From Acidobacteriota bacterium (lineage in GTDB: Bacteria > Acidobacteriota > Polarisedimenticolia > JAPUKU01), in contig JAPUKU010000045.1 of the NCBI GenBank assembly GCA_027295505.1, positions 20,586 through 84,585 on the forward strand: a DNA stretch of 64,000 nt. Direction: 5' to 3'. The notes beneath the pieces were generated by a model. That model did not search any database. It was not told where the DNA came from and worked only from the letters and a program-made list of their open reading frames with translations. Below are positions 4,034 through 60,030 of the stretch, piece after piece. Every line of letters starts with the position of its first letter. Positions within the stretch are counted from its first letter, which is position 1. The position numbers and the translations under genes are program-made.

Positions 4034-4148
4034 CGCGTCCGTTCAATCATCCAGAGAAACGGCCCGCGACTCCGATCCGGGTGGAATCTACGGCCCTACC
4101 CGGTCCCGGGTCGCCCCGCTATCGCCGCGAGCCGCACCCCTGGGATCA

Positions 4149-4706
4149 TCAGGACGCCGGCCGGATCAGGCTGTTGAAGTGCTCCCAGTCAAAGACCGGG
4201 CCGGGATCCGTCTTGCGGCCCGGAGAGATATGGCAGTGTCCGACGATGCGCTCCCGCGTGATATCAGGATACGCCAGCATGAGGGCTTCCGCCAACGCGG
4301 CCAGGCTTCGGTACTGGGCATCTTCGTAGGAGATGTCGTCGGCTCCCTCCAGCTCAACACCGATCGAGAAATCGTTGCAACGCCTCTGTCCCTCGAAGCA
4401 GGATTCCCCCGCGTGCCAGGCCCGGTCATGCAGCGACACATACTGGATCAGGGATGCGTCGCGACGCACGAACAGGTGGCTGGATACTCGCAGGTCCCTG
4501 ATCTTCGGGAAATAGGGGTGGGCGTTCAGATCGAGGCAGTTGCAGAACAGCTGCTCCACCCAGGGGCCTCCGAACTGACCGGGCGGAAGGCTGATGCCAT
4601 GGACCACGAGCAGGCTGACCGGCACACCTTTGGGACGCGCATCAAAGTTAGGTGAGGGCGAAAACTGCGCCCCTTCGACCCGGCCTCTCTGCAGGTCGAT
4701 GTTCAT
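4149..4706 (-). CDS. ampD: 1,6-anhydro-N-acetylmuramyl-L-alanine amidase AmpD
   Basis: Strong collinear similarity to AmpD: SPNFDARP, LLVVHGISLPPGQFGG, RVSSHLFVRRDASLIQYV, RAWHAGES, RCNDFSIGVELEG, GHCHISPGRKTDPGP. I chose the ATG at 4706 (MNIDLQRG...) as the start. Confidence 0.85.
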   Translation of the reverse strand: MNIDLQRGRVEGAQFSPSPNFDARPKGVPVSLLVVHGISLPPGQFGGPWVEQLFCNCLDLNAHPYFPKIRDLRVSSHLFVRRDASLIQYVSLHDRAWHAGESCFEGQRRCNDFSIGVELEGADDISYEDAQYRSLAALAEALMLAYPDITRERIVGHCHISPGRKTDPGPVFDWEHFNSLIRPAS

Positions 4707-4731
4707 GGTCCGTGCGACGTGTGGAGAGGAA

Positions 4732-5709
4732 TCAGCGGGCGACGTGGGAAACGCGCCCGCGCTCCAGGGCTTCGCGAACCCGCTCTCCCACCTCCAGACA
4801 GGCCTGAAGCGCGCGCCGCCCCTGTTGCCCGTCGACCGAGGCTGGCCGGCCATCGCGGACCGCTCCCCAGAAATCCTGCAGTTCCAGGCCCAGAGGCTCA
4901 GCGCGCCGCACCGGCAGCGTACGGCTCACGATCTGCGGAAGGGCGCCCTTCTCGGGCCGGTCAAGGGCGTAATGCAGCACTTCCTGTTGGGAGTAATCGA
5001 GCGACAGGTAGCTCGTGGACTCGAACACCCTCAGCTTGCGCACCTTGCCGACGCTGATGCGGCTGGCCGTGAGGTTGGCGGCGGCTCCGTTGCGAAAGAC
5101 GATGCGGGCGTTGGCAATGTCGAGACGCGAACTAAGAGCCTGAACACCCACGGCATCGATACGCTCCACCTCGGAGCGCACCAGGTTGAGAACCACGTCG
5201 ATGTCATGGATCATGAGATCCAAAATCACGTCGATGTCCAGGCTTCGCGGCTGGAACGAGCCCAGACGGTGGGCCTCGATGAAGCGCGGATCATGGCACA
5301 CCTCTCGCAGCGCCGTCACGGCTGGATTGAACCTCTCGGTGTGACCGACCTGCAACAGCGCCCCTTTCCGTTCGGCAAGAGCAATGAGCCGATCCGCTCC
5401 ATCCAGAGCGGCGGCGATCGGCTTCTCCACGAGCACAGCCACACCACGCTCGAGAAGAGACGCCGTGACAATCTCATGATGCTCGGTGGGTACTGATACC
5501 ACGGCGGCATCCAGCTCGAGGCCGGGCAGATCTCTCACCGCGCAGGCCGGCGCACCGTAGCGTCCCGCAACCTCATGGGCGCGTGCGGAATCGGTATCCA
5601 CCACGCCAACCAGATCCACCTCAGGTGACGCGCTGCACAGACGCACCCGGTGCTCACCGATGTTGCCCGCACCGACCACGGCAACTCTGAGCTTGCGCAA
5701 CGCGGTCAC
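4732..5709 (-). CDS. Gfo/Idh/MocA-family NAD(P)-dependent oxidoreductase (possibly a GnnA-like UDP-GlcNAc 3-dehydrogenase)
   Basis: N-terminal Rossmann motif LRVAVVGAGNIGEHR and an EKP motif (VLVEKPIA); length 325 aa; its start overlaps the lpxA stop by 4 nt. Confidence 0.8.
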   Translation of the reverse strand: MTALRKLRVAVVGAGNIGEHRVRLCSASPEVDLVGVVDTDSARAHEVAGRYGAPACAVRDLPGLELDAAVVSVPTEHHEIVTASLLERGVAVLVEKPIAAALDGADRLIALAERKGALLQVGHTERFNPAVTALREVCHDPRFIEAHRLGSFQPRSLDIDVILDLMIHDIDVVLNLVRSEVERIDAVGVQALSSRLDIANARIVFRNGAAANLTASRISVGKVRKLRVFESTSYLSLDYSQQEVLHYALDRPEKGALPQIVSRTLPVRRAEPLGLELQDFWGAVRDGRPASVDGQQGRRALQACLEVGERVREALERGRVSHVAR

Positions 5710-6485
5710 CGTACCACTCCCCTCTTCGCGCCACGCATGAACTCCGCCAGGTAGCGGACCTCTTCGAAATTTTCGAGTTCCGCCGTCAGCTCAGCGAGCG
5801 ATTGATCGATCGGCAACCTCGAACGCACCAGGACCTGATAGGCCCGGCGCAAAGCCTTGACGGCGTCAGCGCTGAACTGCTTGCGCTTGAGCCCGATGAC
5901 GTTGATGCCGTGGGTCGAGGCACGGTTCCCTACCGTGAGCACGAACGGCAGGGCATCCTGCGTAACGACCGAATAACCGCCGATGTATGCGTGCCGCCCG
6001 ACCCTGCAGAACTGGTGCACACCCGAGAAGGCCCCGATGGTGGCATGATCCTCCACGACGACATGTCCCGCGAGCGTGGCGGCGTTGGCTAACAGCGTGT
6101 GGCTTCCGATCTGGCAGTCGTGGGCGATGTGCGTGTAAGCCATGAAGTAATTATGATCGCCAATGCGAGTCTCTCCCCCCCCGCCCTTCGTCCCGACATG
6201 GACAGTCATGAACTCGCGGAAAACATTGTCACGTCCAATGTGCAGGCGCGTGTGCTCACCCCGAAACTTGAGATCCTGGGGAGGTTGTCCGATTGAGGAG
6301 AAGGGGAAGAAGTGACAGCCTTCCTCGACTACCGTGTCACCCTGCAAGACAACGTGCGAATCAAGCCGACACCCACGCCCCAGGCGCACGCCTGCGCCCA
6401 CCTGGCAAACGGCTCCGATCTCGGTGTCTTCACCAAGTTCCGCTCCGGTCTCGACGATGGCACTGGGGTGTATGCGGGCGATCAG
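5706..6485 (-). CDS. lpxA: acyl-ACP--UDP-N-acetylglucosamine O-acyltransferase LpxA (start codon non-canonical or uncertain)
   Basis: Left-handed beta-helix hexapeptide repeats and LpxA-specific motifs (IGQPPQDLKFRGEHTRLHIGRDNVFREFMTVHVGT, HIAHDCQIG, GINVIGLKR). The in-frame sequence upstream of the first GTG (6401) encodes the conserved LpxA N-terminus ..[24 protein letters not shown], with no ATG/GTG/TTG before it. A CTG at 6483-6485 overlaps the fabZ TGA. Confidence 0.8.
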   Translation of the reverse strand: MIARIHPSAIVETGAELGEDTEIGAVCQVGAGVRLGRGCRLDSHVVLQGDTVVEEGCHFFPFSSIGQPPQDLKFRGEHTRLHIGRDNVFREFMTVHVGTKGGGGETRIGDHNYFMAYTHIAHDCQIGSHTLLANAATLAGHVVVEDHATIGAFSGVHQFCRVGRHAYIGGYSVVTQDALPFVLTVGNRASTHGINVIGLKRKQFSADAVKALRRAYQVLVRSRLPIDQSLAELTAELENFEEVRYLAEFMRGAKRGVVR

Positions 6486-6922
6486 GGCGTCCCCCCCTCG
6501 GCGAGCGCGGAGAGAATCTCCGCTTCCGCCACCAGCGAGCCATCCACGTACGCCCGGCCTTGCATCTTGGCGGCTCGAGAGCGAACCTTGAGCACCTTCA
6601 GCTCCAGACGAAGCTGATCGCCCGGGCGCACCGGTCGGCGGAAGCGAGTCTTGTCAATGCCTGTGAAATAGACGATGCGTCGCTTTTCTTCCGGCAAGCT
6701 GGACAGCAGAAGCACGGCGCCGACCTGGGCCATGGCCTCCACGACGAGCACCCCGGGCATCACCGGATGGCCCGGAAAGTGCCCCTGGAAAAACGGCTCA
6801 TTAAACGATACGGACTTGATCCCCACGGCGCTCTCGCCTTCACGGATTTCAATGATCCGATCCAGGAGCAGAAACGGATAGCGATGGGGCAGGATCTTCT
6901 GAATTTCCTCGACGTTCAGCAC
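6482..6922 (-). CDS. fabZ: 3-hydroxyacyl-ACP dehydratase FabZ
   Basis: 146 aa with hot-dog fold motifs: [36 protein letters not shown]. Confidence 0.95.
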
Positions 6923-6926
6923 GCGA

Positions 6927-7958
6927 TCACCCCTTCCTCCTCTTGCCCTTCACCGGCGCTAGTTTGCCTCGTAAGCGCCGCAATAGATCGGGCAGCCGAC
7001 TTAGTGCCGTGACGATCCGCTTCCACTCTCTGTGGTCGATGGCCGGGTGGCCAATGACAAACGCCCCCGGCGGCAGATCCCGCAGGACAGCGGACTTGGC
7101 GCCCACCCGGGCGCCGTCACCCAGGTTCAGGTGGCCGGCTGCGCCCGACTGCCCCGCCATGGCCACGTCCCGCCCTAGGCGTGTGCTGCCGGCCAGGCCA
7201 CTCTGTGCGGCCAGCGCGCAATGCTCACCGATTTCGACATTGTGCGCCACCTGAACAAGGTTGTCGATCTTGGTGCCACGGGCAATGCGCGTGGGACCGA
7301 GCGTGCCCCGGTCAATGGTCGTATTGGCACCGATCTCGACGTCATCTCCCACTTCTACCCAACCCACCTGCGGGATCTTGCGGTACTCCTCGCCCCGGCG
7401 TGCGAAGCCAAAACCATCGCTTCCGAGGACCGCACCCGCGTGCACGATGACTCGATTTCCGAGAACCGTGCGCCGATAAAGGGTTGCGTTGGGGCACACA
7501 ATCGTGTCCTCACCGATCCGGCATCCGTCTCCGATCACCGCGCCGGACTGGATCTGTGCCCGGGCGCCGACATGGCATTCCCGCCCCAGTACGGCGCCCG
7601 GTTGAATCGTCGCCTGCGGATGGACCGAGCAGTCCGCACCGATTTTCGCCTGCGGATCGATGCCAGCAGCCACCCTCTCAGGGGGATGAAAAATCTCCAG
7701 CACTTCCGATAAGGCCAGATAGGGATCCTCAACCCGGAGAAGGTTGCGGCCGGACAGGCTGCCGCGCTTGGACACCAGCAGAGCACCTGCACGGCTTTCT
7801 CCAGCCCGGCGAGAGTAATCGGCCCGTGCCACGAAAGCCATATGCTCGGGACCGGCATCCTGCAGCGTCCGCACCCCCTGGAGCTTCAGGCCAGAGTCGC
7901 CCTCCACCTCGCCCCCCACCTGGTTGGCGATCTCGCCGAGCGTGATCGAACGCTCCAA
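6927..7958 (-). CDS. lpxD: UDP-3-O-(3-hydroxyacyl)glucosamine N-acyltransferase LpxD
   Basis: 343 aa with an N-terminal LpxD domain plus hexapeptide repeats; sits between skp and fabZ as in the canonical cluster. Confidence 0.9.
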   Translation of the reverse strand: MERSITLGEIANQVGGEVEGDSGLKLQGVRTLQDAGPEHMAFVARADYSRRAGESRAGALLVSKRGSLSGRNLLRVEDPYLALSEVLEIFHPPERVAAGIDPQAKIGADCSVHPQATIQPGAVLGRECHVGARAQIQSGAVIGDGCRIGEDTIVCPNATLYRRTVLGNRVIVHAGAVLGSDGFGFARRGEEYRKIPQVGWVEVGDDVEIGANTTIDRGTLGPTRIARGTKIDNLVQVAHNVEIGEHCALAAQSGLAGSTRLGRDVAMAGQSGAAGHLNLGDGARVGAKSAVLRDLPPGAFVIGHPAIDHREWKRIVTALSRLPDLLRRLRGKLAPVKGKRRKG

Positions 7959-36656: not shown

Positions 36657-38021
36657 TTAGCGGGGAATATTGATGCCGTATGATTTGATCTTGCGGTGCA
36701 GATGACTGCGTTCGAGCTTGAGGACGCGGGCCGCACGCGTGATGTTCCAGCTGTTGTCTTCCAGCGTGCGCTGGATCAGCTCGCGCTCGAAGCGCTCCTT
36801 GCCTTCCCGGAGCGATAGCGGCCGGCCACTATTGCCACCGGCCCGGGCCGGATCTTCTCCACGCAGGCCGGCCGGAAGATCGGATATACCGATCTCGTCG
36901 TGCGGCACCATGATGACGAGCCGTTCGACAACGTTCTTGAGCTCACGCACATTTCCTGGCCAGCGATATGCCTTGAGCGCCGCCAGAGCCGGCGCCGAGA
37001 AATCTTTCGGCCGGCGGCCATATTCCTGGGCGAACTCCCCGGCAAAGTGTTCGGCCAGCAGGGGCACATCACTGACCCGGTCGCGGAGCGACGGCACCTG
37101 GATGGGAATGACCGCCAGGCGAAAGTAGAGATCCTCGCGGAAGCGCCCCTGGTGAATCTCCTCCTGCAGATCCTTGTTGGTGGCCGTGAGCACGCGCACG
37201 TCCACCTGTATGGAGGATGCGCCTCCGACGGGCTCGAACTTCTGCTCCTGCAGCACCCTGAGAACCTTGGCCTGTGTGCGCAGGCTCATGTCCGCTATCT
37301 CATCCAGAAACAGGGTACCGCTGTCCGCCAGCTCGAACTTCCCCTTCTTGTCGTGCACCGCACCGGTGAAGGAGCCTTTGACGTGGCCGAACAGCTCGCT
37401 TTCGATCAGCTCTTCCGGGATGGCGGCGCAGTTCATTTCTACGAACGCTTCCTCGGCACGCAGGCTGGTACCGTGAATCATGCGAGCCACGAGCTCCTTG
37501 CCGGTCCCGTTCTCGCCAAAGATGAGCACACGTCCGTTCGTGGGCGAGGCCCGCCGGATCTCCTCCCTCAATCTCTCGATCTTGCTGCTCTTGCCGATGA
37601 GGGTATGCCGGCGTTGCAGTTGCTCACGCAGCACGCGATTGCGCGCCTCGAGGAGACGCTGCTTGAGGGCGTTGCGCAGCACGAGCACGGTCTTTTCGAG
37701 TGACAGAGGTTTCTCAACGAAATCAAACGCACCGAGCTTGGTCGCGCGCACCGCCGTCTCGATATTACCGTGTCCCGACATCATGACCACGGCCGCATCC
37801 ATGCCTCGCTGCCGTAGTTCACGAAGCGTCTCGAGCCCGTCCATTTTGGGCAGCCATACATCCAGCAGGACCGCATCGCACGGTTTGCGCTCGTAAGCTT
37901 CCAGGCACTGCTCGCCGCTCTCCGCAACTTCCACCTTGTAGCCCTCATCGAGCAAAACACCGCGCAGCGATGAGCGCACTCCCGCTTCATCATCAACAAT
38001 TAGGATGCGCTCGCCTGCCAT
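36657..38021 (-). CDS. ntrX: sigma54-dependent response regulator, NtrX/NtrC type (REC-AAA-Fis HTH)
   Basis: REC (ILIVDDE..DVWLPKMDG), a sigma54-interaction AAA+ domain (GENGTGKE, GAFTGA-like, ESELFGH), and a C-terminal HTH (ITRAARVLKLERSHLHRKIKSYGI). Confidence 0.85.
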   Translation of the reverse strand: MAGERILIVDDEAGVRSSLRGVLLDEGYKVEVAESGEQCLEAYERKPCDAVLLDVWLPKMDGLETLRELRQRGMDAAVVMMSGHGNIETAVRATKLGAFDFVEKPLSLEKTVLVLRNALKQRLLEARNRVLREQLQRRHTLIGKSSKIERLREEIRRASPTNGRVLIFGENGTGKELVARMIHGTSLRAEEAFVEMNCAAIPEELIESELFGHVKGSFTGAVHDKKGKFELADSGTLFLDEIADMSLRTQAKVLRVLQEQKFEPVGGASSIQVDVRVLTATNKDLQEEIHQGRFREDLYFRLAVIPIQVPSLRDRVSDVPLLAEHFAGEFAQEYGRRPKDFSAPALAALKAYRWPGNVRELKNVVERLVIMVPHDEIGISDLPAGLRGEDPARAGGNSGRPLSLREGKERFERELIQRTLEDNSWNITRAARVLKLERSHLHRKIKSYGINIPR

Positions 38022-38024
38022 CCG

Positions 38025-40244
38025 TCAGCCCTGCACCGGGAGATCGATGACGAACGTCGTGCCCTGCGGCACGTTGGCGCGCACGTGGATGGCTCCATTG
38101 TGGTCGGAAATGATGCGATCGACGATTGCCAGACCGAGACCGGTCCCGCGGTTCTTGGTGGAGAAGTAGGGCATGAACAGGCGTTCACGATCTTCTGGAG
38201 GAATACCGGGGCCGGTGTCGCTGACCTCAACCCGAACCACCCGAGGGTCCTTCAGGTAGCAGGTACCGATGAGCACCTGGCCCTGTCCGTTCATGGCCTC
38301 GATGGCGTTGTCGATCAGGTTGATGAACACTCGGCGCATCTGCTCAGGATCGACGTGCACGGCGGGAGTCTCACCATTGTCTCGGCGGACGATCGAAAGG
38401 TCTGTGCTGCGCCCATTGTAATGAGCCAGCGCCTCATCGATCACAAGGCCGAGATCGACCGGTACCGGCTGCACATGGGGCATTTGCGCAAAACGCGTGA
38501 AGGCGTCGACGAGGCTCTTGAGCGAATTGACCTCACGCACGATGCTGGCACTTCCTTCCTCGACGATCTCACCCAGCCGGGGACTCTTCTCGCGCCACTT
38601 CTTGCGAATGCGCTCCGCCGACAGCTGGATGGGCGTGAGCGGGTTCTTGATTTCATGTGCGATGCGGTGTGCGACTTCCCGCCAGGCGGCGAGGCGCTGG
38701 CCCTTGATGAGATCGGTGAGATCTTCCAGCACGATGAGCATACCCAGGTAACTGCCCTGGCCGTCATCGAGCTGAGAGAGGTGGGCAGCCGCAGTAACCG
38801 TTCGCCCCCCACTGACGAAGCGCAGCTCCCGCTCCAGCGAGGTCTTGGCTCCCGACTGAACGCTCTCGATGGCTTCGCCAAGGCCTTTCAGATCGGCACT
38901 TCCCTGCTGCAGGATCTCCGCCGGTTTGTTGAGGATGGCTCCGCGGCGCGGCAGTCCCAGAATGCGGTGTGCAGCGCGATTGATGGTGCTCACCCTTCCC
39001 TGGCGGTCCAGCGAGATGACGCCCGTGGTGATGTTTTCGAGAAGGATCTCGATGTAGCGGCGGCGCTCCTCGAGGGCCTGGTTGATTTCGTTGAGTTCGC
39101 GGCTGCGCTGGTCAATGGTTTCCCGGTTGCCCCGCAGCTCCTCGGTCATGGCGTTGAATGAATCCACCAGGATCCCGAGCTCGTCTCCGGCTTCCACTTC
39201 AACCTTGTAGTTGAGGTTGCCCGAAGAGATTTCACGCGTGCCGTGAGCAAGCATCTGAATGGGCACCGTGATGCGCTTGGACAGGTACAGGCCGATCCAA
39301 GTCACCGAGAATAGGATGATCAGGGTCACGAGCGCGAACGCGAACGTGTATAGGCGCTGGATGTTTGACTTCTGGGCTTTGTTCTGGCGGTAGTTCTCGC
39401 TCGCACGGCTGATGCGCGAAGTTAAACCCATCAGATCCCGCGAAACCCGGTAGCCGGCCACTAGCACGCCCTGGGCCGGCTCGCCGGGCTTGAGAGAGGC
39501 GATGGGCACGCCATAGCGCACCAGTTGTGAACCGCTATGCGAATTGATCCACCCAAACGGCTCCCCCGCCAGGGCTTTGTCGATCAGGTTCTGGGGAAGC
39601 TGCTCGATCGAGTCCACCGGGATACGCGGATCCAACACAACCAGTGGCTCTCCTCCACCCACGTAGACACCGATGAAGTCGAGGCCATACTGCTTGAGAC
39701 GGCGCTTGAGCCAGCGCCCGAGATAGCGGCGGTTCTCTCCCAAGAGGCCGTTTTCCGCCGCCAGCCTGCTTGTACGCTGTGCGAAGTGGGCTGCGCGCTG
39801 CCTGACGTCGTCGTAGTAGGCGTCCACGACCTCCTGCGAGTACTGGGTGACCTCATCCACAGGGGTGCTGAACCACTTGTCCACGCTCGACTGGATGAGA
39901 TGGAGGGCGGCCAGGAATATCAGCAGGGACGGCAGCAGCCACAGGGCCAGCAGTGTGAACACAACCTTCGTCTTGAACTTGGCGCCGAGAATGTTGCGCT
40001 TGCGCTCCACCAGCAGCTTGATGAGGTTGCGGAAAAGGATGAACAGGAAGGTGAGTATGAGGATGGCATTGGTAATGCCCAGAAACGACAGCAGCACCGA
40101 GTTTGTGAGGTAGGGCCAGCTAAAATCCTCGGTCTTCTGGAGGAAAAAGTAGATGGCCGAAACAACCAACACCAGAATCGCCACTCCGAGCAGGAGCAGG
40201 CGATCGGTGTTCAGTCGCGGACGGCTACGGCTGGATCGGCTCAT
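38025..40244 (-). CDS. ntrY: sensor histidine kinase, NtrY type
   Basis: Multi-TM N-terminus, HAMP, PAS, an H-box ([20 protein letters not shown]) and a HATPase_c domain ([33 protein letters not shown]); lies upstream of ntrX. Confidence 0.85.
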   Translation of the reverse strand: [739 protein letters not shown]

Positions 40245-40797
40245 CGTCCTGGATCAGATCGGACTTGGCCCATTCGGTCTCGAAGTCCCAGGGGATGAAG
40301 AAGAACACGAAACGGTTCTGGATCTCAGACTTGACCTTCACGTAGAGGCGATCGAGCGTCTCCACGGGGTTCTCAGAGGGCAGGGGGATCTTCTCGAACA
40401 CCGTCATCCAGTTCTTCATGTCCTCGGCCTTGTCGGTGACCAGGGTGTCGACCATCTGGCCGTTGACAGTGCGCGAAACTCGATACTGCTTCGTCAGAAT
40501 GTCGAATGTCACACTGGTGGTGACGAGCTTTTCGGAGAGCCGCTGATCAACCCAGACGGTCCGGCGCCGGTAAGCGCGCAGTACGTGATGAAATGTCACC
40601 GGCAGCCCGCTGGCGATGACTTCCTCCACCTCCTCAGTGAAGGCCCCCGAAACACGGAAATCTACGCTTATAGCTCCCTCGCTGAGCGCAACCTGGAGCT
40701 GGTCAATCTGAACTCCACGACCACGCCCCAGCGGCAGGGGCAGGATGATGAGAATCAGGGCGCCGCCAAGCCAGCGCCGCAGGAGATGGTCGAACAC
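40225..40797 (-). CDS. DUF4390-like periplasmic protein associated with ntrYX
   Basis: Signal peptide, about 190 aa, overlaps the ntrY start. This matches the usual position of DUF4390 genes upstream of ntrY in proteobacteria. I recall the family-level similarity but cannot compute it here. Confidence 0.5.
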   Translation of the reverse strand: MFDHLLRRWLGGALILIILPLPLGRGRGVQIDQLQVALSEGAISVDFRVSGAFTEEVEEVIASGLPVTFHHVLRAYRRRTVWVDQRLSEKLVTTSVTFDILTKQYRVSRTVNGQMVDTLVTDKAEDMKNWMTVFEKIPLPSENPVETLDRLYVKVKSEIQNRFVFFFIPWDFETEWAKSDLIQDDEPIQP

Positions 40798-40919: not shown

Positions 40920-41846
40920 TCAGAGAGAGGCGGTCTGACTGCCTCCGGCCACCATAGCGGGCCGGGAAGGAATGTGGTGTGCGGCCACCTCGGTACTGCC
41001 TTCGAACCTCCAGGCATCCGGCCGGGCCAGGATCTCCTGGACCAGGCGGGTGTGGAGGCGGTGCCCAGCGCGCTCGGCTCGAACGTGGCCCACGAAAAGC
41101 ATGCCGAGCAGGGCCAGATCCCCGATTAGATCGAGTACCTTGTGGCGCACGAACTCATCCTCAAAGCGTAGCGAATCGTTCAGGATCCCATCGTCCCCCA
41201 CCACGATCGCGTTCTCGAGGCAGCCGCCGAGAGCCAGCCCCTGTCTTCTCAGGGCCTCAACATCACGCAGAAAGCAGAACGTACGGGCCGTGGCGATTTC
41301 GCTCAGGTAGCTCTTACAGCTGATGCTTCCCCGGAAGTTCTGGGATCCAACGAGCGGATGGTCAAAATTGATACTGTAGTCGACGCTGAAGGAAGGAGCT
41401 GGACTGGCGGTAATGCGCCCCCCCTGCTCGCTGACTGATAGGGGTTTCTCCAGCACGAGCCGCGGGCGCGCGGCACCCAGCTCGAAGATCCCGGCCTCGT
41501 GAATGAGGTAGATGAAGGGCGCCGCACTGCCATCCAGGATCGGCACCTCAGCCCCATCCAGTTCAACGAGCACGTTATCAATCTCAAGGGCATACAGGGC
41601 GGACATCAGATGCTCGGTCGTAGAGATGCTGCAACCGTTCTCGGAGAGGGTCGTCGCAAAGGAAGTCCTGACGACGTTTACGGCCCGTGCATAAACGCGC
41701 CGCCCCCCCTGATCGAGCCGGGCGAAGACAATCCCGTGGCCTGCAGGAGCCGGGTTGAGACGCATCGAAACCGGCCTTCCCGAGTGGAGGCCGATCCCCA
41801 CGCACTCGGCACTTTTCTTCAGGGTCCGCTGATTGGATCTCGGCAT
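40920..41846 (-). CDS. lpxC: UDP-3-O-acyl-N-acetylglucosamine deacetylase LpxC
   Basis: NQRTLKKSAECVGIGLHSG.. aligns to the E. coli LpxC N-terminus. Contains TTEHLMSAL and HKVLDLIGDLALLG (zinc and hydrophobic passage motifs). Start set at the ATG at 41846. Confidence 0.9.
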   Translation of the reverse strand: MPRSNQRTLKKSAECVGIGLHSGRPVSMRLNPAPAGHGIVFARLDQGGRRVYARAVNVVRTSFATTLSENGCSISTTEHLMSALYALEIDNVLVELDGAEVPILDGSAAPFIYLIHEAGIFELGAARPRLVLEKPLSVSEQGGRITASPAPSFSVDYSINFDHPLVGSQNFRGSISCKSYLSEIATARTFCFLRDVEALRRQGLALGGCLENAIVVGDDGILNDSLRFEDEFVRHKVLDLIGDLALLGMLFVGHVRAERAGHRLHTRLVQEILARPDAWRFEGSTEVAAHHIPSRPAMVAGGSQTASL

Positions 41847-41995
41847 GGGTCGCGGCGCTCGCGCGCGCACCTTCTGGTTATGCATCATCCGTGCCAGTCA
41901 TGATTTCATCAAGGAGATCGTGAGAATTCTCTGATTTCACAGATAGTTAACCGATCTACCATCATTCACACACGGCCGAACCGATCACAGATTCG

Positions 41996-49696: not shown

Positions 49697-50365
49697 TTAT
49701 CGGACTCTCTGTGATGTGGCTCTGGACAGCAGACGGCGTAGATCGCGGGTGGCCGCAGCGGGGCGGCCACCGTGGAAGATGGCGGAACCGACTACAAGGA
49801 CATTGGCTCCCAGGGCCGCAAGCGATACGGCGTTCGCACGGTCGACTCCGCCATCCACCTCGATGTCGAAGTGCCAGCCTCGCCGGTGGCGTAGCTGATC
49901 GAGGGCACAGATCTTGTCGCGCACCGCTTCGATAAAGCGCTGCCCACCAAAGCCGGGGTTGACCGACATGAGGAGAACCAGATCAACATCTCCTGCCAGC
50001 AAATCGACGCTGTTCAGAGGAGTGCCGGGGTTGACAGCCACTCCGGCCCGCAGGCCCAGAGCGCGAATCTGCTGCAGCGTGCGGTGAATGTGGGGGTCCG
50101 CCTCCACGTGCACTGAGATCCAATCGGCGCCAGCTCGCGCGAAAGCCTCCACGTAGCGCGACGGTTCCTCAATCATGAGATGAACATCGAGCGGCAGGCG
50201 GGTCGCACGCCGCAGCGCCTCGACTACCGGAATGCCGATCGACAGGTTCGGCACAAAACGTCCGTCCATGACATCGATATGGAGCACATCCGCCCCTCCA
50301 TCCTCGACCTCACGGACCTGGGCCCCCAGAAATGCGAAGTCGGCCGACAGGATGGACGGCGCCAC
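49697..50365 (-). CDS. rpe: ribulose-phosphate 3-epimerase
   Basis: VAPSILSADFAFLG.., HIDVMDGRFVPNLS, LMSVNPGFGGQRF, VDGGV; the GTG at 50365 reproduces the usual Rpe N-terminus. The upstream 80-aa extension in the ORF track was rejected. Confidence 0.85.
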   Translation of the reverse strand: MAPSILSADFAFLGAQVREVEDGGADVLHIDVMDGRFVPNLSIGIPVVEALRRATRLPLDVHLMIEEPSRYVEAFARAGADWISVHVEADPHIHRTLQQIRALGLRAGVAVNPGTPLNSVDLLAGDVDLVLLMSVNPGFGGQRFIEAVRDKICALDQLRHRRGWHFDIEVDGGVDRANAVSLAALGANVLVVGSAIFHGGRPAAATRDLRRLLSRATSQRVR

Positions 50366-50438
50366 CCTGACAGAGGGTGAGGTCGTGCTGATCCCCCGGA
50401 ACCGGGCGGGTACCCGCTTCGTTCTCTTGGTTGCCCGC

Positions 50439-51209
50439 TTAGCTTTCGTGGGTGAAGAGCGTGATGACATCTCGCTTGGTAACCGGATAGCCCGCCAGTG
50501 GATGTTGCCGCGCGACCGCACCGTCAGAGCTTTCGTAACCGGGTTCAGCCACCACGTTGGCGGCACGGAATCCCGAGCGCTTGAGGAGCTGCCGTGCACG
50601 CTCCGCATCCATTCCCACCAGATCAGGCATCACGAACGACTCCTCGTTAGGCCCCTGGCTGACGAGAAGGTTTACGCGATCGTCGCGCACCCGATCCGCC
50701 TCCGGAAGCGGCTCCTGGGAGATTACCTGACTCTCCCGCACCTCTGGTGAATGGATGTAAGACAGGTTTCCCAATCGGAGCCCCTGCTGCCTCAGCGTGA
50801 TCTGCGCCTTGCGTACAGCGCTGCCGCGGAGGTCCGGAATGGTGATCACCTTAGAGCCCAGGCTGGTGATCACCTTGACCTTGCGGTCCCGCTTGGTTTC
50901 GGCCCCGGCGGGCGGGTCCTGGGCCAGAATCTTACCTGCTTCCACCCGTAGATCGTAACGTTCACGGCTAACCTCGAGCGTCAGGCGGCGCTCCGCCAGG
51001 ACGAGCGCAGCTTCGGCCGGATCGAGATCAATGACATCCGGCACCGTCACCTCACGCCCAACGAGGGCATGCCGCATCGAGTAGATGGCGCTGCCTGCGA
51101 ACAGCAGACCCAGGACCGCCAGCAGTGTCCCGAACCGCAGGACACCATTCAGGACAGCGCGCACCACAGGTCTTGACCACCAGGAAGTTCCATTCGAGGT
51201 CATGATCAT
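50439..51209 (-). CDS. PASTA-domain-containing membrane protein
   Basis: N-terminal TM segment followed by three PASTA repeats of about 65 aa (VPDVIDLDPAEA.., IPDLRGSAVRKAQITLRQQGL.., MPDLVGMDAERARQLLKRSGF..). Confidence 0.7.
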   Translation of the reverse strand: MIMTSNGTSWWSRPVVRAVLNGVLRFGTLLAVLGLLFAGSAIYSMRHALVGREVTVPDVIDLDPAEAALVLAERRLTLEVSRERYDLRVEAGKILAQDPPAGAETKRDRKVKVITSLGSKVITIPDLRGSAVRKAQITLRQQGLRLGNLSYIHSPEVRESQVISQEPLPEADRVRDDRVNLLVSQGPNEESFVMPDLVGMDAERARQLLKRSGFRAANVVAEPGYESSDGAVARQHPLAGYPVTKRDVITLFTHES

Positions 51210-54068: not shown

Positions 54069-54289
54069 GGAACCTGGCGTCCTCGCCGGAGGCCGGTGGC
54101 GAGGGTACTGTTATCCTATATAGCCACAAGGACTTAAGTCAATCTCTGGCCGCCTGTCCTCGCGGGGGGGCATCAGCGGACCGAAAACGTCCCGAATCGG
54201 GGGCATCACCGGGGGATTGCCGGGATCCGGGGATTGCCGTAAAGTGAGCCGTATCAACAAAATCGTCGTTTCAACTCAGAGTGGCCTCC

Positions 54290-54305
54290 TGGCACGATGT
54301 CTGCT
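54290..54305 (+). promoter_or_regulatory. candidate sigma54 (-24/-12) promoter upstream of the FecR-like gene
   Basis: TGGCACG-atgt-CTGCT compared with the consensus TGGCACG-N4-TTGCW. The predicted transcription start site falls at about 54315, essentially at the ATG/GTG start cluster. Confidence 0.35.
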
Positions 54306-54318
54306 TAACTAGCATGTG

Positions 54319-56244
54319 ATGATCAACGCATGTACCAGCCTCCCGCGGGCCGCAATTCACCGTCACCCGCTCCTGACGGTGGCGGCGGGGGTGTTCCTCT
54401 CCTTCACGGCAGTTTCCTCCCAGGATAGCGAAGCGCCGGATGACGGTTCGCGTTTCGCCCACGTGCGCTTCGTCAGCGGCGAGGCGGATCTGGTGCGGGC
54501 GTTTGACGGTGACATGGTTCCCCTGGTTCTCAACCTGCCGATCATTGCGGGAGACCGGCTCGAAGCCGGCGCCCGGGCGCGCCTGGAGTTGGGACTGGCT
54601 GATGGGTCTCTCCTGCGCGCTCAGGGACCGCTGGTGCTCGACGTGCACGCCCTGTCGGCGACCGGCGAAGGATCCGAGTCACTCACGCTTCTTGAACTGC
54701 ATCGAGGCGATCTGTCGCTCGAGATCACCGGCATGGATCAGAGCCCCGATAAGGCGTTCCAGGTGGACACACCGTCGGGAACCTGTTACTTGATGACGGA
54801 CGGGCTGTACCGCGTGAGCGTTGAGCAGAGCGGCAGTGCCATGGTCACGGTGCGCGCCGGAGTGGCCGAAGTCTCGGGAGACGGTGGCACGTCGCTGGTG
54901 CGCAGCGGGCAGACCTCGCTCCTGGCGAGCGGGCGAGCCCCGGAGCGGCCGGCATCACATGGGCTGCGCACTGATGATTTCGATCGCTGGATTGACGAGA
55001 GGAATACAGAGGCTCTGGCGTCGCTTCCCCCCGAGGCCGAGGATCTCCCTGACCCGGTTCGGCCGTACGCGGAAGACCTGACCCGGTACGGTACATGGCA
55101 GACGGTCCCCGAATACGGCATGGTCTGGTTCCCCGCGGACGTACCGGTGGGCTGGTATCCCTACTACGACGGCACCTGGGTCACTTCACCCTCCGGCCAC
55201 CTGTGGGTTTCCTACGAGCCGTGGGGCTGGATCCCATACCATTACGGACGCTGGGAGTACGTGGCAGGTGGCGGCTGGTTCTGGATCCCGGGACCCGTCT
55301 TCGCCGGAGCCTGGGTGCACTGGTGGGTGGGTCCATCCTACGTCTCCTGGGTGCCTCTCGGCTACAACAACGGGCCGGTCATCGACCTGAGCTTAAGCCT
55401 ATCTTTTCATCGCGCGCCATTCAGAGGCTGGGCCTGCGTCCCCTACCACGAATTCCACTCGTCCGATCTGCCGCACAAGTACGTGCGCGACGCGCGCGTC
55501 ATGAAGGCGCACCTCAACAAATCCGTTCGGGTACGACGCCTGCCTGATTTTCATCCCAGGCACCTGCGCACCGGCTCCGATTTCGGGAACGAGATCGTGC
55601 AACGGGCCCGCGGTTCGAGAGATGATCTGCCGCGCCGCAGGTTCCACTCCGCAGGAGTCCGCGCTCGCCCCGCCTCCGGGACCGATCGGGGCTCCCATCT
55701 CTCATCCACCCGGCAGAGCAACCGGCGCAGGTCGATCCGCATGACGACCATGATCCAGGTCCAATCCAACCGGCGCACGTCACGGCGCGGGGACGGGACG
55801 ACCGGCACGCCCCGTCAGAGGACTCCCGTGAGGGAGAGAGGAAGATCCGTGGAATCGCGGGGAACCAGCCCTGCCCCGGCTCCACAGACTTCCAGACAGG
55901 CCCGCCGGCAGGGGCGCAGGAGCTCGGAGCGCGGCGTGGCCGACCTGCTGCGCAGGGTAACCCGGACGCCGGCACCGCGGCGTGCTACTTCGCGTGGAGG
56001 CCAGGTTCCTCGCCGGCCCCAGCCCCGCAGCGTCAGGAGCGGTTCACCGTCGTCCAGAAATGGCGCTCAAGCTCCTCAGGTGAGAAACTCCTCGAAGTCC
56101 CACAGCCGGAAACAGGGCACTTCCGCAAAATCGGTGCGTTCGCGATCCGGCAAGAAGGTTTCCACTGGCTCCCGGCCCAAGGCCCGGAAATCCTCCTCCG
56201 GCAAGGCCAAGCGATCGAACAAGCCCAAGCCACGTCCCCGGTGA
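54319..56244 (+). CDS. FecR-domain protein with a W/Y/G-rich repeat region and a long Arg/Ser/Lys-rich disordered C-terminal tail
   Basis: Signal or anchor peptide, then a FecR-like domain (..NLPIIAGDRLEAGARARLELGLADGSLLRA..FQVDTPSGTCYLMTDGLYRVSV..). A region follows with the repeated motif W-x-P-Y-x-x-G-x-W (YGTWQTVPEYGMVWF, GWYPYYDGTWV, WGWIPYHYGRWEY, GGGWFWIPGP). The last roughly 230 aa are basic and low-complexity. Confidence 0.6.
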   Translation: MINACTSLPRAAIHRHPLLTVAAGVFLSFTAVSSQDSEAPDDGSRFAHVRFVSGEADLVRAFDGDMVPLVLNLPIIAGDRLEAGARARLELGLADGSLLRAQGPLVLDVHALSATGEGSESLTLLELHRGDLSLEITGMDQSPDKAFQVDTPSGTCYLMTDGLYRVSVEQSGSAMVTVRAGVAEVSGDGGTSLVRSGQTSLLASGRAPERPASHGLRTDDFDRWIDERNTEALASLPPEAEDLPDPVRPYAEDLTRYGTWQTVPEYGMVWFPADVPVGWYPYYDGTWVTSPSGHLWVSYEPWGWIPYHYGRWEYVAGGGWFWIPGPVFAGAWVHWWVGPSYVSWVPLGYNNGPVIDLSLSLSFHRAPFRGWACVPYHEFHSSDLPHKYVRDARVMKAHLNKSVRVRRLPDFHPRHLRTGSDFGNEIVQRARGSRDDLPRRRFHSAGVRARPASGTDRGSHLSSTRQSNRRRSIRMTTMIQVQSNRRTSRRGDGTTGTPRQRTPVRERGRSVESRGTSPAPAPQTSRQARRQGRRSSERGVADLLRRVTRTPAPRRATSRGGQVPRRPQPRSVRSGSPSSRNGAQAPQVRNSSKSHSRKQGTSAKSVRSRSGKKVSTGSRPKARKSSSGKAKRSNKPKPRPR

Positions 56245-56705
56245 AAGTGGTGAGGGCTGGAACCCCTGTTGCAGTTGTCACCGCGATCCTGACCCTCAGC
56301 GCCCTGCAGCCCGTCTTCGGGAACGCAACTGCGCCGGAAGGCGGCGGGCCATCCACCGAAAAGCCGAAACTGGTCCTGAAAGCCGAGCCGCGAATCGGCT
56401 TCAGCCCCCTGCGGCTGACCCTGCGCGCCGTGCTCAGCGGCGTGTCAAGCGATGACCTTAACTTCTGCCACGTGGATCAGCTCTGGCTCGGCAAGCGCTC
56501 TGACAGCCCCGGGGCGCGAGAGCGCGCCTCCGCACACCGGCCGCGCTGCCACCATCCGGACGACAAGAAGCAGGTCGAGATGGTCTTCTTCAAGGACCTG
56601 AACCTCTACTCCCCGGGGGCTTACATCTATCGATTGAAGTTGGAGCCCAAGCAGGGTCCACCCCTCATCTCGAATCCAGTGACGTTGCGGGTTCTGAGGC
56701 GCTAG
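56241..56705 (+). CDS. small secreted two-cysteine protein (paralogue 1), translationally coupled to the FecR-like gene
   Basis: GTG start in a GTGA overlap with the upstream stop; signal peptide; 154 aa. Paralogous to the 57840/57876 ORF, sharing the pattern L..L.GV..DD..FCH......GK....H.PRC.H..KK.......KD....PG.Y..RL........I.SN. Confidence 0.5.
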   Translation: MKVVRAGTPVAVVTAILTLSALQPVFGNATAPEGGGPSTEKPKLVLKAEPRIGFSPLRLTLRAVLSGVSSDDLNFCHVDQLWLGKRSDSPGARERASAHRPRCHHPDDKKQVEMVFFKDLNLYSPGAYIYRLKLEPKQGPPLISNPVTLRVLRR

Positions 56706-56753: not shown

Positions 56754-57683
56754 TCAGCGGCGGGTGAGGTTGTAGGCTGCCAGCTGCGCCTGGAAGCGCA
56801 CGCTCTGCTTCGGGTCGGTGCCGGCGATCTGCTCCAAGGCGGGAAGAATGTCTGTCTTACCCCTTGCCTCCAGAGTGCGCACCGCTTCCTTCCTCACCGC
56901 CGTGTCCTCGTCTTCACGTGCCCGGGTGAGAAGATGCGTGAGAAGGTGATCCTCGTTGTTGAGCTGTGCCTGCCACAGATCCCTGTCCTCGTACATCTGC
57001 GCCAGCAGCATGAGCGCCCCACGTCGGAAGTCCGGCACCGCATGATCCAGGATCGGTAGCACCGCACGGATCTGTTCCGGTCTACCCAGCCTCAGCCGCA
57101 CCATCTGCTGCAGACCGGCCTCCAGCACAAGTGGATTGGGATCAGAGAGAAAAGACTGCAGGTCCTCGTACATTTTTTCGATGTCGGCCTGCTCCTGTAC
57201 GTGCACAAAGCGGCGGGTCGCCTCCAGGAGGGCGTTGGCGCCTTCGGGAGGCAGCGTCACCTTGCCTTGGTGCCCGTAGACGAGCGAAAAGCGATCCGGG
57301 CGCGGGTTCTCACCGCGGATGTCCTCGAACGGCTTCATGAACAGCAGTACCCGTTCTCCGTTACTGAACTCGACCTTTTCTTCCCAGATTCTCCGTGTGA
57401 AGTTGTCGAGCCTGAAAACGATCCATAGTCGCGGCTCATCGTAGAACCCTTTCAGGACCTCCTCGATCTCGATCTCCGCAAGGCGAAGGTCGCCGCGGAT
57501 CACTTTCCCTCGCACCACGAGCGTGCTCATGGCCGGCTTTTCAAAAAGGCTGAGATGGATGAGGTCGGCCCATGCCGGGCACAGCCCCGCGAGCCAGCCG
57601 ATCGCCAGAACGAGGAGGAATCCCCGTTCGAATCCGGCGCGGTGGGGGCGGGTCGGAGAGATCCTGCACGGTCGTTCACGCAT
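56754..57683 (-). CDS. secreted HEAT/PBS-lyase-repeat protein
   Basis: Signal peptide (FLLVLAIGWLAGLCPAWA) and C-terminal HEAT-like repeats (NPLVLEAGLQQMVRL.., VLPILDHAVPDFRRGALMLLAQM.., DTAVRKEAVRTLEARGKTDILPALEQIA..). Confidence 0.6.
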   Translation of the reverse strand: MRERPCRISPTRPHRAGFERGFLLVLAIGWLAGLCPAWADLIHLSLFEKPAMSTLVVRGKVIRGDLRLAEIEIEEVLKGFYDEPRLWIVFRLDNFTRRIWEEKVEFSNGERVLLFMKPFEDIRGENPRPDRFSLVYGHQGKVTLPPEGANALLEATRRFVHVQEQADIEKMYEDLQSFLSDPNPLVLEAGLQQMVRLRLGRPEQIRAVLPILDHAVPDFRRGALMLLAQMYEDRDLWQAQLNNEDHLLTHLLTRAREDEDTAVRKEAVRTLEARGKTDILPALEQIAGTDPKQSVRFQAQLAAYNLTRR

Positions 57684-57755
57684 CTGGGTCTTCTCGAATT
57701 ATAGGGCCTGGACGCGCCGCGACAATCGACCGGACAGCTTCACCTGAAAATCCAG

Positions 57756-57878
57756 GGCTTACAATCTATTTTATTCGTATAGTTGACAATTATATATTGA
57801 ATATACATATTGTAGGATATCGAGACAAAAATATATGTAATGAATATGTATTATAAGAAAAATAGATATTCAATAATG
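57756..57878. promoter_or_regulatory. AT-rich island (GC far below the local background of about 66%) with a perfect -35 TTGACA (57783-57788) and an inverted pair of TGAATAT(A/G)(C/T)AT motifs
   Basis: Seen directly: ..tattcgtatagTTGACAattatatattgaatatacatattgtaggatatcgagacaaaaatatatgtaatgaatatgtattataagaaaaatagatattcaataATG.. The motif at 57798-57811 is approximately the reverse complement of the one at 57841-57854. Confidence 0.45.
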
Positions 57879-58304
57879 CTGATTCCGACTGCCCTCCTGC
57901 TGGCCGGCGCCACGTCCAGCCTTCCCAGGGCGGCATCCCTGCCTCCCGATCCTCAAAGGGAGTTCACTCCGCACCTGAAAATCTTCGCTGACCGGTACGT
58001 CGCGCTCGCTCCGGCCCGGGTGCGAGTCTACGCACAGCTTGGTGGGGTCGATGATGACGACGTGCGTTTCTGTCATGCGGGAGAGACCTGGATCACCGGT
58101 AAGGTGGAAGGCACCAGCACGCTGAACTCGATCTCCAAGCACGATCCTCGCTGTGTTCACGATCCCAAGAAACTGTCCGTCAGCCGCTCGTTCACCAAGG
58201 ACTACGAGTTCTCACGACCCGGCTCCTATGTCTGCCGCCTGGTGGTGCACTCCAACGACGGGCGCATTGTCCAGTCGAACATGATTGTCATCAACGTTCG
58301 CTGA
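57876..58304 (+). CDS. small secreted two-cysteine protein (paralogue 2)
   Basis: Signal peptide MLIPTALLLAGATSS.. The ORF track starts at 57840 inside the AT-rich island, and I prefer the ATG at 57876. Homologous to the 56241-56705 product (FCHAGETWITGKVEG...HDPRCVHDPKK...KDYEFSRPGSYVCRLVVHSNDGRIVQSNMIVINV). Confidence 0.5.
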   Translation: MLIPTALLLAGATSSLPRAASLPPDPQREFTPHLKIFADRYVALAPARVRVYAQLGGVDDDDVRFCHAGETWITGKVEGTSTLNSISKHDPRCVHDPKKLSVSRSFTKDYEFSRPGSYVCRLVVHSNDGRIVQSNMIVINVR

Positions 58305-58311
58305 GCGCCGT

Positions 58312-60030
58312 TCAGCGGAACAGACCCTTCAGCTTCTCCAGGAGTTTTTCCTTGCCTTTCTCCTCGGCCGCTCGCTTGAGCCCTTTTCGAAATTGGGCCT
58401 GATCAATCTGCACGCTGGGGCCTGCGAGCGGCCCGTGCAGGCGGAAGCGAATCTCCAGGCGCTCGTCCTCACCGACCAGATAGCGCAGGGAACTGGTCTC
58501 GGCCACCATCTCACGGCTCACCTCGGGTGAGAAGCGGCCCACCACGTCGAAGTCGAGCGTGGCATCCAGCCCGAAGGTGCCCTCGCCATCCAGATCCAAA
58601 TCCTGTGATCGCACGGTGAGGTTCCGAGTGTGCGCCTTTCCGCTGCGGATGTCGAAATCACCCCGGATCGAGTCATACGGGGTGGTTTCCTTGCCGATTC
58701 CCCTGCCCCCCGCAACTTCCAGGAGCTTGGCAACCTGGCGCAGGATACTCACGCTCATCAGCTCGCCGTCACGCAGGTCCAGGCTCAGGCCGCCGCGCAG
58801 GTTGCGCGACAGGTCCAGCTGTGTGAGCCCCTGGCCCTCGAGCTTCATCTCACCCGAGAATCGACCCGTCAGGAGGCCCTCGAGATCGGCGCTCAGGGCC
58901 GGCAGGGCGCCCGCCAGATCGATCCGGCTGGCGCGTGCCTGAAGGCTGAAGGGCATGGGGTCGACGAAGGGATTGAGCGAACCGGTGCCGTTGAGCTCGC
59001 CGCCGTACAGGCTCGTGGACAGCTTCTCCAGCTGCAATGCCCCGCCCTCGAGCGAGAACTCCATGGCAACATGGAAAGTTTCAGCTAGCATCCGGAAGCG
59101 CGGCCCCTCTCCCAGCTTCACCTTCAGATCTGAGAGGTCCAGGCTGCCGTTTGCAACAACACCGTCGAGCAGACCCGGCACCGCCCCGCTCCCCTCCTGC
59201 GCGCCGAAAGTGTGGAATTCGATGCTGCCGCGCGCCACACCAGAGTGCACGGCCTCGGGCACCTGCACTCCGGCGACCAGGAGCAGCGGGCGCAGTGTCT
59301 CCACGTCGACATCCAGAACCTCTGCCAGGACGTGAGTGCGGGCGCCGCCGTCGAGTGGAACCTCGCCGCTGAGTTTCACCTTCTCATCGTCCGTGCCGCC
59401 GAGCGCCACGCCGATTTCGAAGCGCCACGCCGCACCCACCCCCCGGCGCTCCAACGTCACCCGCGCGGGCCCCAGAGTCACTCCCTCACGTAACCCGGCC
59501 GGCCCCTCGGGATCAATGAAGACCACGCGCACGTCGCGCAGATCGATTCGATCGACAGGAAGATCCGCAGCGGCAGTCTGATCGGAATCGGCCCGCGTCT
59601 GCTTCACCCGGGGTGTTGCCTGACCTGGGAGCGAAGCCCCGCTCACACCGGGTATCCCCCATCCGCGGCTCTGTGGAAGACGCTGCAGGCGCAGGACCAC
59701 TCCCTTCACATTCACGCGGCCAAGGCGCACCTCCCCGCGCACCAGTGGCCACAGGCGCAGGCCGACGCCAAACTCCTCGACGGTCAGGTCAGGAGCGTTC
59801 TCCCGGCCTCCCACGCGCACGCCGCCACCCTGCAAGCGCAAGCCAAGTCCCGGTTTGAGCCGCAGGTGATCGATCTTTACCGGGAGTCCGATGGCTGCCG
59901 ACGCCTGCTCCTCCAGCAGCGGCAGGAACCGATCGCTTGATATAAGAAAGGGAAGGGCCAGAAAAACAAGAAGCAGCAGCGCGGCCGCAGCCGCCACGAC
60001 CAGGAGCGCGATGCGTGGTTTGCGACCCAT
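58312..60030 (-). CDS. AsmA-family protein
   Basis: N-terminal TM anchor (RIALLVVAAAAALLLLVFLALPFLI), then a long beta-rich periplasmic region of about 550 aa with the AsmA-like N-terminal pattern (..GLPVKIDHLRLKPGLGLRLQGGGVRV..). Confidence 0.65.
   Translation of the reverse strand: MGRKPRIALLVVAAAAALLLLVFLALPFLISSDRFLPLLEEQASAAIGLPVKIDHLRLKPGLGLRLQGGGVRVGGRENAPDLTVEEFGVGLRLWPLVRGEVRLGRVNVKGVVLRLQRLPQSRGWGIPGVSGASLPGQATPRVKQTRADSDQTAAADLPVDRIDLRDVRVVFIDPEGPAGLREGVTLGPARVTLERRGVGAAWRFEIGVALGGTDDEKVKLSGEVPLDGGARTHVLAEVLDVDVETLRPLLLVAGVQVPEAVHSGVARGSIEFHTFGAQEGSGAVPGLLDGVVANGSLDLSDLKVKLGEGPRFRMLAETFHVAMEFSLEGGALQLEKLSTSLYGGELNGTGSLNPFVDPMPFSLQARASRIDLAGALPALSADLEGLLTGRFSGEMKLEGQGLTQLDLSRNLRGGLSLDLRDGELMSVSILRQVAKLLEVAGGRGIGKETTPYDSIRGDFDIRSGKAHTRNLTVRSQDLDLDGEGTFGLDATLDFDVVGRFSPEVSREMVAETSSLRYLVGEDERLEIRFRLHGPLAGPSVQIDQAQFRKGLKRAAEEKGKEKLLEKLKGLFR

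Follow-up and report, generated by a model that had tools for sequence, protein, structure and literature searches.

In a 64,000-nt stretch of DNA from an Acidobacteriota bacterium (contig JAPUKU010000045.1, positions 20,586 to 84,585; the whole stretch is hereafter called the window), a gene divergent from def encodes a protein with an acidic folded head, made up of a FecR-type domain and a DUF6600 domain, followed by a long polycationic tail. This protein is an ordinary member of a catalogued, very large and uncharacterised bacterial family, and its gene is preceded by a sigma-54-type (-24/-12) promoter element that is conserved in orthologues and enriched upstream of relatives. We lean slightly towards reading it as a typical FecR-fold/DUF6600/cationic-tail protein, activated through sigma-54 and an NtrC-type regulator, which would act as an exported, inducible envelope protein with its tail on anionic polymers. 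The original prediction for this locus had described a FecR-domain protein deprived of its extracytoplasmic function (ECF) sigma factor, with a peculiar basic tail, a coupled small secreted protein and a sigma-54-like promoter close to the start codon. The features of the locus are the following.

54212..54239, + strand: candidate enhancer (upstream activating sequence), direct repeat GGGGATTGCCG-N6-GGGGATTGCCG, its centre ~80 nt before the predicted start of transcription
54290..54305, + strand: sigma-54-type element TGGCACG-ATGT-CTGCT, TGGCACGATGTCTGCT, with GG at -24 and GC at -12; one mismatch to TGGCACG-N4-TTGCW
54316 (GTG) or 54319 (ATG) to 56244, + strand: open reading frame (ORF) of the DUF6600 gene, 642 or 641 aa
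54319..54417, + strand: start codon and putative Sec-type signal peptide, residues 1-33, read from the sequence
54451..54933, + strand: acidic FecR-type beta-sandwich domain, residues ~45-205
55072..55368, + strand: DUF6600 domain (PF20245), a Trp/Tyr/Gly/Pro-rich beta-hairpin block with EPWGWIPYHYGRW
55369..55632, + strand: structured basic extension following DUF6600, residues ~351-438
55633..56241, + strand: polycationic disordered tail rich in Arg, Ser, Lys, Thr, Pro and Gly, residues 439-641
56241..56244, + strand: GTGA stop/start overlap of the DUF6600 gene with an ORF of 154 aa
56241..56705, + strand: 154-aa putative secreted protein; two invariant Cys, beta-sandwich fold of Ig-like/CARDB-like type

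Since sigma-54 promoters (-24/-12) depend on an enhancer-binding activator driven by ATP, both the promoter element and genes for bacterial enhancer-binding proteins (bEBP) are relevant here. The spacer between def and the DUF6600 gene is poorly conserved when four orthologous loci are compared (protein identities of 83, 51 and 47%), yet TGGCA.G-N5-GCTTA is invariant within it and the GG-N10-GC spacing is exact. When 80 family loci from GTDB were scanned, an upstream GG-N10-GC site was found at 51 of them with at most two mismatches and at 29 with at most one; the 52 sites detected in the 35 kb scanned compare with about 1.5 expected from a background of 0.043 per kb over 1.5 Mb, an enrichment of about 30-fold. 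Weaker GG-N10-GC sites are present at most of the loci that gave no hit and have an activator gene upstream. An NtrC-type bEBP with REC, Sigma54_activat and HTH_8 domains lies directly upstream on the same strand at 17 of the 80 loci, preceded by a HisKA/HATPase histidine kinase in all four loci scanned for it, and the NtrC-type regulator is the commonest upstream neighbour family (13/65). The sigma-54-like site, where detectable, sits between this regulator and its DUF6600 target; in the homologue of Geothrix fermentans DSM 14018, the element TGGCACGACCCTGGCT lies 56 nt upstream of the ATG.

No sigma-70-like site was found on the + strand of the intergenic region between def and the DUF6600 gene, and a sigma-70-like site at 54142-54113 on the - strand explains a conserved AGTCAA block as the promoter of def. 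Upstream of the sigma-54-type element, the promoter-proximal copy of the direct repeat (GGATnGCCGTAA) is conserved in all four orthologues, and the GGGGATTGCCG repeat is a candidate enhancer. The predicted sigma-54 promoter therefore has strong comparative support from the four orthologues, the 51 relatives with a site and the 17 with a bEBP gene upstream, from which we infer that expression of the DUF6600 gene depends on sigma-54 in vivo. This conserved promoter, accompanied in many genomes by a neighbouring histidine kinase and NtrC-type activator, is the first regulatory handle on the family.

The position of the element is also informative with respect to the leader. Counted from the C of the -12 GC, the ATG lies 15, 15, 17 and 16 nt downstream in the four orthologues. 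No other possible start separates this ATG from an in-frame stop, and a Shine-Dalgarno sequence is missing throughout the window's clade; initiation at the following in-frame start codons would cut off the n-region of the signal peptide. In most other relatives, by comparison, 25-83 nt separate the GC from the ATG and a clear GGAGG is found. A search parameter used elsewhere sets the start site 5-12 nt past the end of the motif (PMC3616915), and the leader predicted with it would therefore be of 1-8 nt; transcripts are usually called leaderless when start site and start codon are no more than 5 nt apart (as quoted in PMC12754779). The proposal of a leaderless or very short leader gains support in this way from the GC-to-ATG spacing of 15-17 nt and the missing Shine-Dalgarno sequence, and both a leaderless or near-leaderless sigma-54 transcript in the window's clade and its condition as a conserved clade-specific trait appear likely. 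If true, a sigma-54 promoter abutting the start codon would produce an unusual leaderless sigma-54 transcript.

The reading frame downstream of this element is well delimited. An identical protein in the public databases has 641 aa, begins at the ATG and is named by NCBI 'DUF6600 domain-containing protein [Acidobacteriota bacterium]', and an in-frame TAG at 54310-54312 rules out a longer N-terminus. The G+C content at third codon positions (GC3) stays at 0.70-0.83 along the entire ORF, the tail included, and orthologues preserve the tail in both frame and length, although it diverges faster than the head (amino acid identity of 78% vs. 88% with the orthologue L001, and of 39% vs. 64% with L003). 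Therefore, the tail is translated and is no artefact of a GC-rich genome; a wrong-frame origin of it was rejected on these same grounds.

The protein architecture was found as originally described, with a FecR domain, a region rich in Trp, Tyr and Gly, and a basic tail. The second of these regions matched DUF6600 (PF20245) over residues 253-351 with 97 bits (cutoff 27) and an E-value of 8e-28, covering profile positions 2-101 of 102, so the repeat region does belong to a known Pfam family, but one without a defined role. The 'four or more' W-x-P-Y-x-x-G-x-W repeats attributed to it were an overstatement, as there are two exact copies (WYPYYDGTW and WIPYHYGRW) and two or three looser ones, in a block where Trp makes up 14 of every 100 residues. 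The FecR assignment was sub-threshold in Pfam (PF04773, E-value 0.0047, 17.8 bits vs. a cutoff of 24), whereas the fold itself was confirmed by an AlphaFold model built on 53 homologues, which gave structural matches to the periplasmic domains of PupR and BDI_1681. The predicted local distance difference test (pLDDT) of this model is above 90 over most of residues 45-435. In the extension at residues ~351-438, the means of 10-residue blocks are 83-94, except for 60 at residues 361-370 and 71 at 431-440; this part has a net charge of +6, and none of its columns is conserved when 53 family sequences are aligned. The head (residues 45-350) has a net charge of -19 and is rich in aromatic residues, without any enzymatic signature.

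In the tail, residues 439-641 include 47 Arg, 35 Ser and 11 Lys, for a net charge of +52 and an isoelectric point of 12, with only 9% hydrophobic residues. Its disorder was borne out by the AlphaFold model, with pLDDT below 50 from residue 440 to the C-terminus, and Tandem Repeats Finder detected no tandem repeats in the DNA that encodes it. Across the family, the composition of the tail is kept and its sequence is not: low-complexity tails of 180-540 aa are present in all 90 homologues, with compositions that vary between R/S-, R/P/E-, G/S-, Q- or P-rich. These tails are net positive in 89 of the 90 homologues and in 139 of 140 independent cluster representatives, and a net negative charge was found for the heads of 89/90 and 138/140, respectively. 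An acidic folded head joined to a long polycationic disordered tail is thus the hallmark of the family, and the basic tail, taken at first for a peculiarity of this gene, is a universal feature.

The N-terminus suggests that the protein is exported. A signal peptide can be read in it, with an n-region containing R10 and R15, the h-region LLTVAAGVFLSFTAV and a likely cleavage site at A-V-S|S followed by acidic residues; the orthologues show cleavage sites of AXA type (ALA|QE and PLA|QE). Of the 90 homologues, at least 80 have a hydrophobic segment at the N-terminus, and only four show another transmembrane-like one. No recognisable signal for export through the outer membrane (PEP-CTERM, T9SS or autotransporter domain) was found in the Pfam scan. 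Binding of the tail to nucleic acids or polyanions had been proposed from its composition. As the protein is predicted to be exported, having a signal peptide and a fold of periplasmic type, binding to cytoplasmic nucleic acid is unlikely, whereas another polyanion is still a possible ligand.

FecR-type regulators consist of a cytoplasmic anti-sigma domain, one membrane span and a periplasmic FecR domain with a C-terminal subdomain that contacts the STN domain, and they are encoded next to an ECF sigma factor. The DUF6600 protein shares with these FecR/PupR-type cell-surface-signalling regulators the periplasmic FecR fold and differs in the rest. Only about 17 residues precede its hydrophobic segment, where an anti-sigma domain would need about 80-90 aa, and since any extension is blocked by the stop at 54310, there is no cytoplasmic anti-sigma domain. 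The FecR_C or STN-binding subdomain gave no Pfam match at E-values up to 1, and the sandwich is followed instead by a helix and DUF6600. ECF sigma factors were searched for by phmmer, with one RpoE sequence of E. coli as the seed; with this seed none was detected in the 64-kb window, in agreement with what had been noticed for this gene, and one was found near only three of 87 family loci. No ECF-type (Sigma70_r2/r4) family is included among the 25 commonest upstream-neighbour families. No TonB-dependent transducer is nearby either, and sigma-54 with a bEBP appears to take over the control.

The sole clear link to an ECF sigma among the 87 loci is L048, from a Candidatus Acidiferrales genome, where an ECF sigma gene and a gene for a probable zf-HC2 anti-sigma factor of 378 aa lie upstream of the DUF6600 gene on the same strand (positions 3148-7187 of the locus). 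As a separate protein occupies the anti-sigma position there, the DUF6600 gene looks like a target and not a regulator. It is thus most improbable that the protein of the window is a true anti-sigma factor or cell-surface-signalling regulator of FecR type, with an ECF sigma and TonB-dependent transducer encoded elsewhere, even if its fold resembles the domains of PupR and BDI_1681 and one relative lies downstream of an ECF sigma gene. Of the features that define the FecR type only the fold is present, and as judged from its sequence the DUF6600 protein is no anti-sigma factor. The missing ECF sigma, considered an anomaly in the original prediction, is therefore what would be expected of a protein without anti-sigma features from a family that is hardly ever found near such genes.

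The overlap with the small downstream gene proved to be real. The same 4-nt overlap was called at the orthologous loci L001, L003 and L004, and the 154-aa product has an N-terminus that resembles a signal peptide by eye and two Cys that are invariant in the alignment. Its AlphaFold2 model is of moderate quality (mean pLDDT 68.7), with a fold that matches only generic Ig and CARDB domains, and no match to Pfam or NCBIfam was obtained. Only three close homologues were found, all in the window's own clade, and small Ig-like proteins are absent at 80 distant family loci, so the overlap is limited to this clade. A paralogue (32% identity, E-value 4e-21) is encoded at 57840-58304 on the + strand.

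Together, these data are compatible with the following mechanism. A bEBP-driven sigma-54 promoter would switch on the DUF6600 gene, the activator being an NtrC-type response regulator which, with its histidine kinase, is encoded directly upstream in many relatives. In the window's clade the transcript would be leaderless or have a very short leader, not exceeding about 9 nt, and the 154-aa Ig-like protein would be made by termination-reinitiation at the GTGA overlap. The DUF6600 protein would be induced as the output of a sigma-54 response directed at the envelope, its aromatic acidic head possibly docking to a periplasmic or surface partner (protein or glycan), and its polycationic tail sticking electrostatically to anionic envelope material (lipopolysaccharide, phospholipid head groups or acidic exopolysaccharide).

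The circuit logic of the Terriglobia-type loci, with a histidine kinase, a REC-AAA+-HTH_8 activator, a sigma-54-like site and a single exported protein in this order, is like that of ZraSR-ZraP of E. coli and Salmonella, in which an NtrC-type two-component system acts on a sigma-54 promoter and one periplasmic protein. For the regulators of relatives, the best NCBIfam matches below threshold include ZraS and ZraR, although these matches are far under the equivalog cutoffs and those to AtoS and AtoC are higher. Unlike in that system, the two-component genes are not adjacent in the window's clade, and the DUF6600 protein has no sequence or fold relation to ZraP. A resemblance to the RIN periplasmic retention domain of RTX adhesins (MpIBP, PDB 5IX9), with 15% identity over some part of the model, comes without the context of an adhesin secreted by a type I secretion system.

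Several observations weigh against this interpretation. Taken by itself, the sigma-54-like element does not reach significance in the window, where two sites with at most one mismatch to the consensus were counted against 0.62 expected and 14 of 100 shuffles reached two; its significance comes from its position and conservation and not from window statistics. The six loci from outside Acidobacteriota (Gemmatimonadota, Nitrospirota and Pseudomonadota) have no such element. In the window's clade no activator is encoded next to the gene; the nearest bEBP, an NtrX-like one, is 16 kb away and cannot be tied to the promoter. The signal peptide was called by reading the N-terminus and not by a predictor, and passage through Sec of a tail with a net charge of +52 is unfavourable against the membrane potential. 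The neighbour analysis of the family loci revealed no conserved functional partner, regulator genes aside; no paper on 'DUF6600' was found, and the role of the tail on envelope polyanions is pure conjecture, as is any partner of the head.

The weak statistics at the level of the window, together with the long spurious ORFs that high-GC genomes yield, could be taken to mean that the element arose by chance or is used by a different factor, the gene having an ordinary promoter and a normal leader, or that the tail is an over-extended ORF. Such an explanation is very unlikely, because the element is conserved in orthologues and enriched family-wide, activator genes adjoin it in many relatives, the + strand of the intergenic region has no sigma-70-like site, and the GC3 and frame are kept through a tail that all homologues possess. 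A less improbable alternative, but still an unlikely one, is that of a periplasmic accessory protein or feedback co-sensor of the adjacent histidine kinase, similar to ZraP or CpxP, in place of a structural effector. The N-terminus of the Terriglobia-type upstream kinase is embedded in the membrane (DUF4118-like), without an obvious sensor domain in the periplasm, and in the known FecR/PupR systems the FecR-type domains are periplasmic modules for signal relay; against this, no kinase gene adjoins the DUF6600 gene in the window's clade or in most relatives, and a co-sensor needs no cationic tail of 200-500 aa.

A secreted matrix or adhesion protein, whose Trp-rich head would bind polysaccharide while its tail would act in biofilms as a cross-linker of acidic exopolysaccharide, extracellular DNA or mineral surfaces, is a possibility of minor weight that overlaps with the exported envelope protein preferred here and differs from it only in the final location. 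It would be in agreement with the signal peptide read from the sequence, the aromatic-rich head lacking an enzymatic signature, the charge dipole universal in the family, and neighbours in the window's clade that are all envelope or secreted proteins (AsmA-like, patatin, HEAT-repeat protein and small Ig-like proteins). Also, sigma-54 has been argued to be linked in general to the cell exterior and biofilm (PMC3162934). The lack of a recognisable outer-membrane export signal argues against it, and no carbohydrate-binding module was detected. Returning to the inducible envelope protein, a wider claim can be formulated in which the FecR-fold/DUF6600/cationic-tail proteins would constitute an unrecognised class of sigma-54/NtrC-controlled envelope effectors of Acidobacteriota, their exported tails, with the acidic heads, forming an electrostatic network or a condensate with anionic polymers of the envelope or matrix, and those of the window's clade being made from a rare leaderless mRNA initiated by sigma-54 and co-translated with a small Ig-like partner; this claim is speculative and, in our opinion, rather doubtful.

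Regarding the breadth of the family, all 90 homologues from the first search carry DUF6600 and most of them also FecR (PF04773), with lengths of 500-930 aa. An exhaustive phmmer search with the folded core yielded 13,421 clusters at 50% identity, 9,462 of them at E-values of 1e-10 or lower, and a strict peptide pattern was present in at least 600 GTDB species (one genome per species); among the matches listed for this pattern, most are from Acidobacteriota and some from Gemmatimonadota, Nitrospirota and Pseudomonadota. Three loci from cultured Geothrix (L039, L042 and L069) carry family members. The combination of FecR and a basic tail is therefore not unusual and is that of a very large family. 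The protein of the window shares with the PF20245 proteins that have an N-terminal FecR domain the order of signal peptide, FecR-type sandwich, DDFDRW helix, EPWGW.PYHYGRW block and cationic tail, and nothing essential differs between them; what sets the window's clade apart is the position of the sigma-54 promoter, which appears to leave almost no leader, and the overlapping gene for a small Ig-like partner. Literature searches combining FecR, RpoN and Acidobacteria found no paper, those combining FecR with acidobacterial genus names returned none actually containing FecR, and FecR is mentioned neither in a sigma-54 comparative paper nor in a paper on the Geobacter RpoN regulon.

The surroundings of the gene include, beyond the divergent def, the genes fmt and rsmB, a gene for a PASTA protein, and rpe. 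The gene order def, DUF6600 gene with small protein, HEAT-repeat gene, small paralogue, AsmA-like gene and patatin is syntenic down to 47% identity. No RNA families were found by Rfam in the whole window. Further features are as follows.

36657-38021, - strand: NtrX-like sigma-54 activator, just downstream of lpxC
38025-40244, - strand: NtrY-like kinase, adjoining the NtrX-like activator
40225-40797, - strand: DUF4390 protein, adjoining the NtrY-like kinase
58312-60030: AsmA-like gene, downstream of the small paralogue in the syntenic block

As the window encodes an NtrX-like bEBP, the organism uses sigma-54. This bEBP was considered as the cognate activator of the DUF6600 gene, without support, the adjacent kinases of relatives being of a different type. 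The other one-mismatch sigma-54-like site of the window, TGGCACGGATGATGCA at 41881-41896 on the - strand, overlaps the annotated start of lpxC (ORF 40920-41888), so that either it is a chance occurrence or the true start of lpxC is located further downstream.

With respect to the immediate upstream neighbours in relatives, a gene with a histone-deacetylase domain was found in six and a cNMP-binding gene in another count of six; the loci concerned were guessed from ORF sizes to be L013, L015, L017, L023, L024 and L032 (Aminicenantes/Saccharicenans-like). The HEAT-repeat gene (56754-57683, - strand) encodes an N-terminus that by eye resembles a signal peptide. Between it and the paralogous two-Cys gene, a strongly AT-rich island at 57740-57880, in a window of 63% GC, contains sigma-70-like promoter matches on both strands, and the first codons of the small paralogue are themselves AT-rich. 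Finally, the ORF of rpe (ribulose-phosphate 3-epimerase; 49697-50608, - strand) is listed with 303 aa, including an Arg/Ser-rich N-terminal extension of about 80 aa, whereas its orthologues are called at 222-255 aa, so that its listed start is probably too far upstream.

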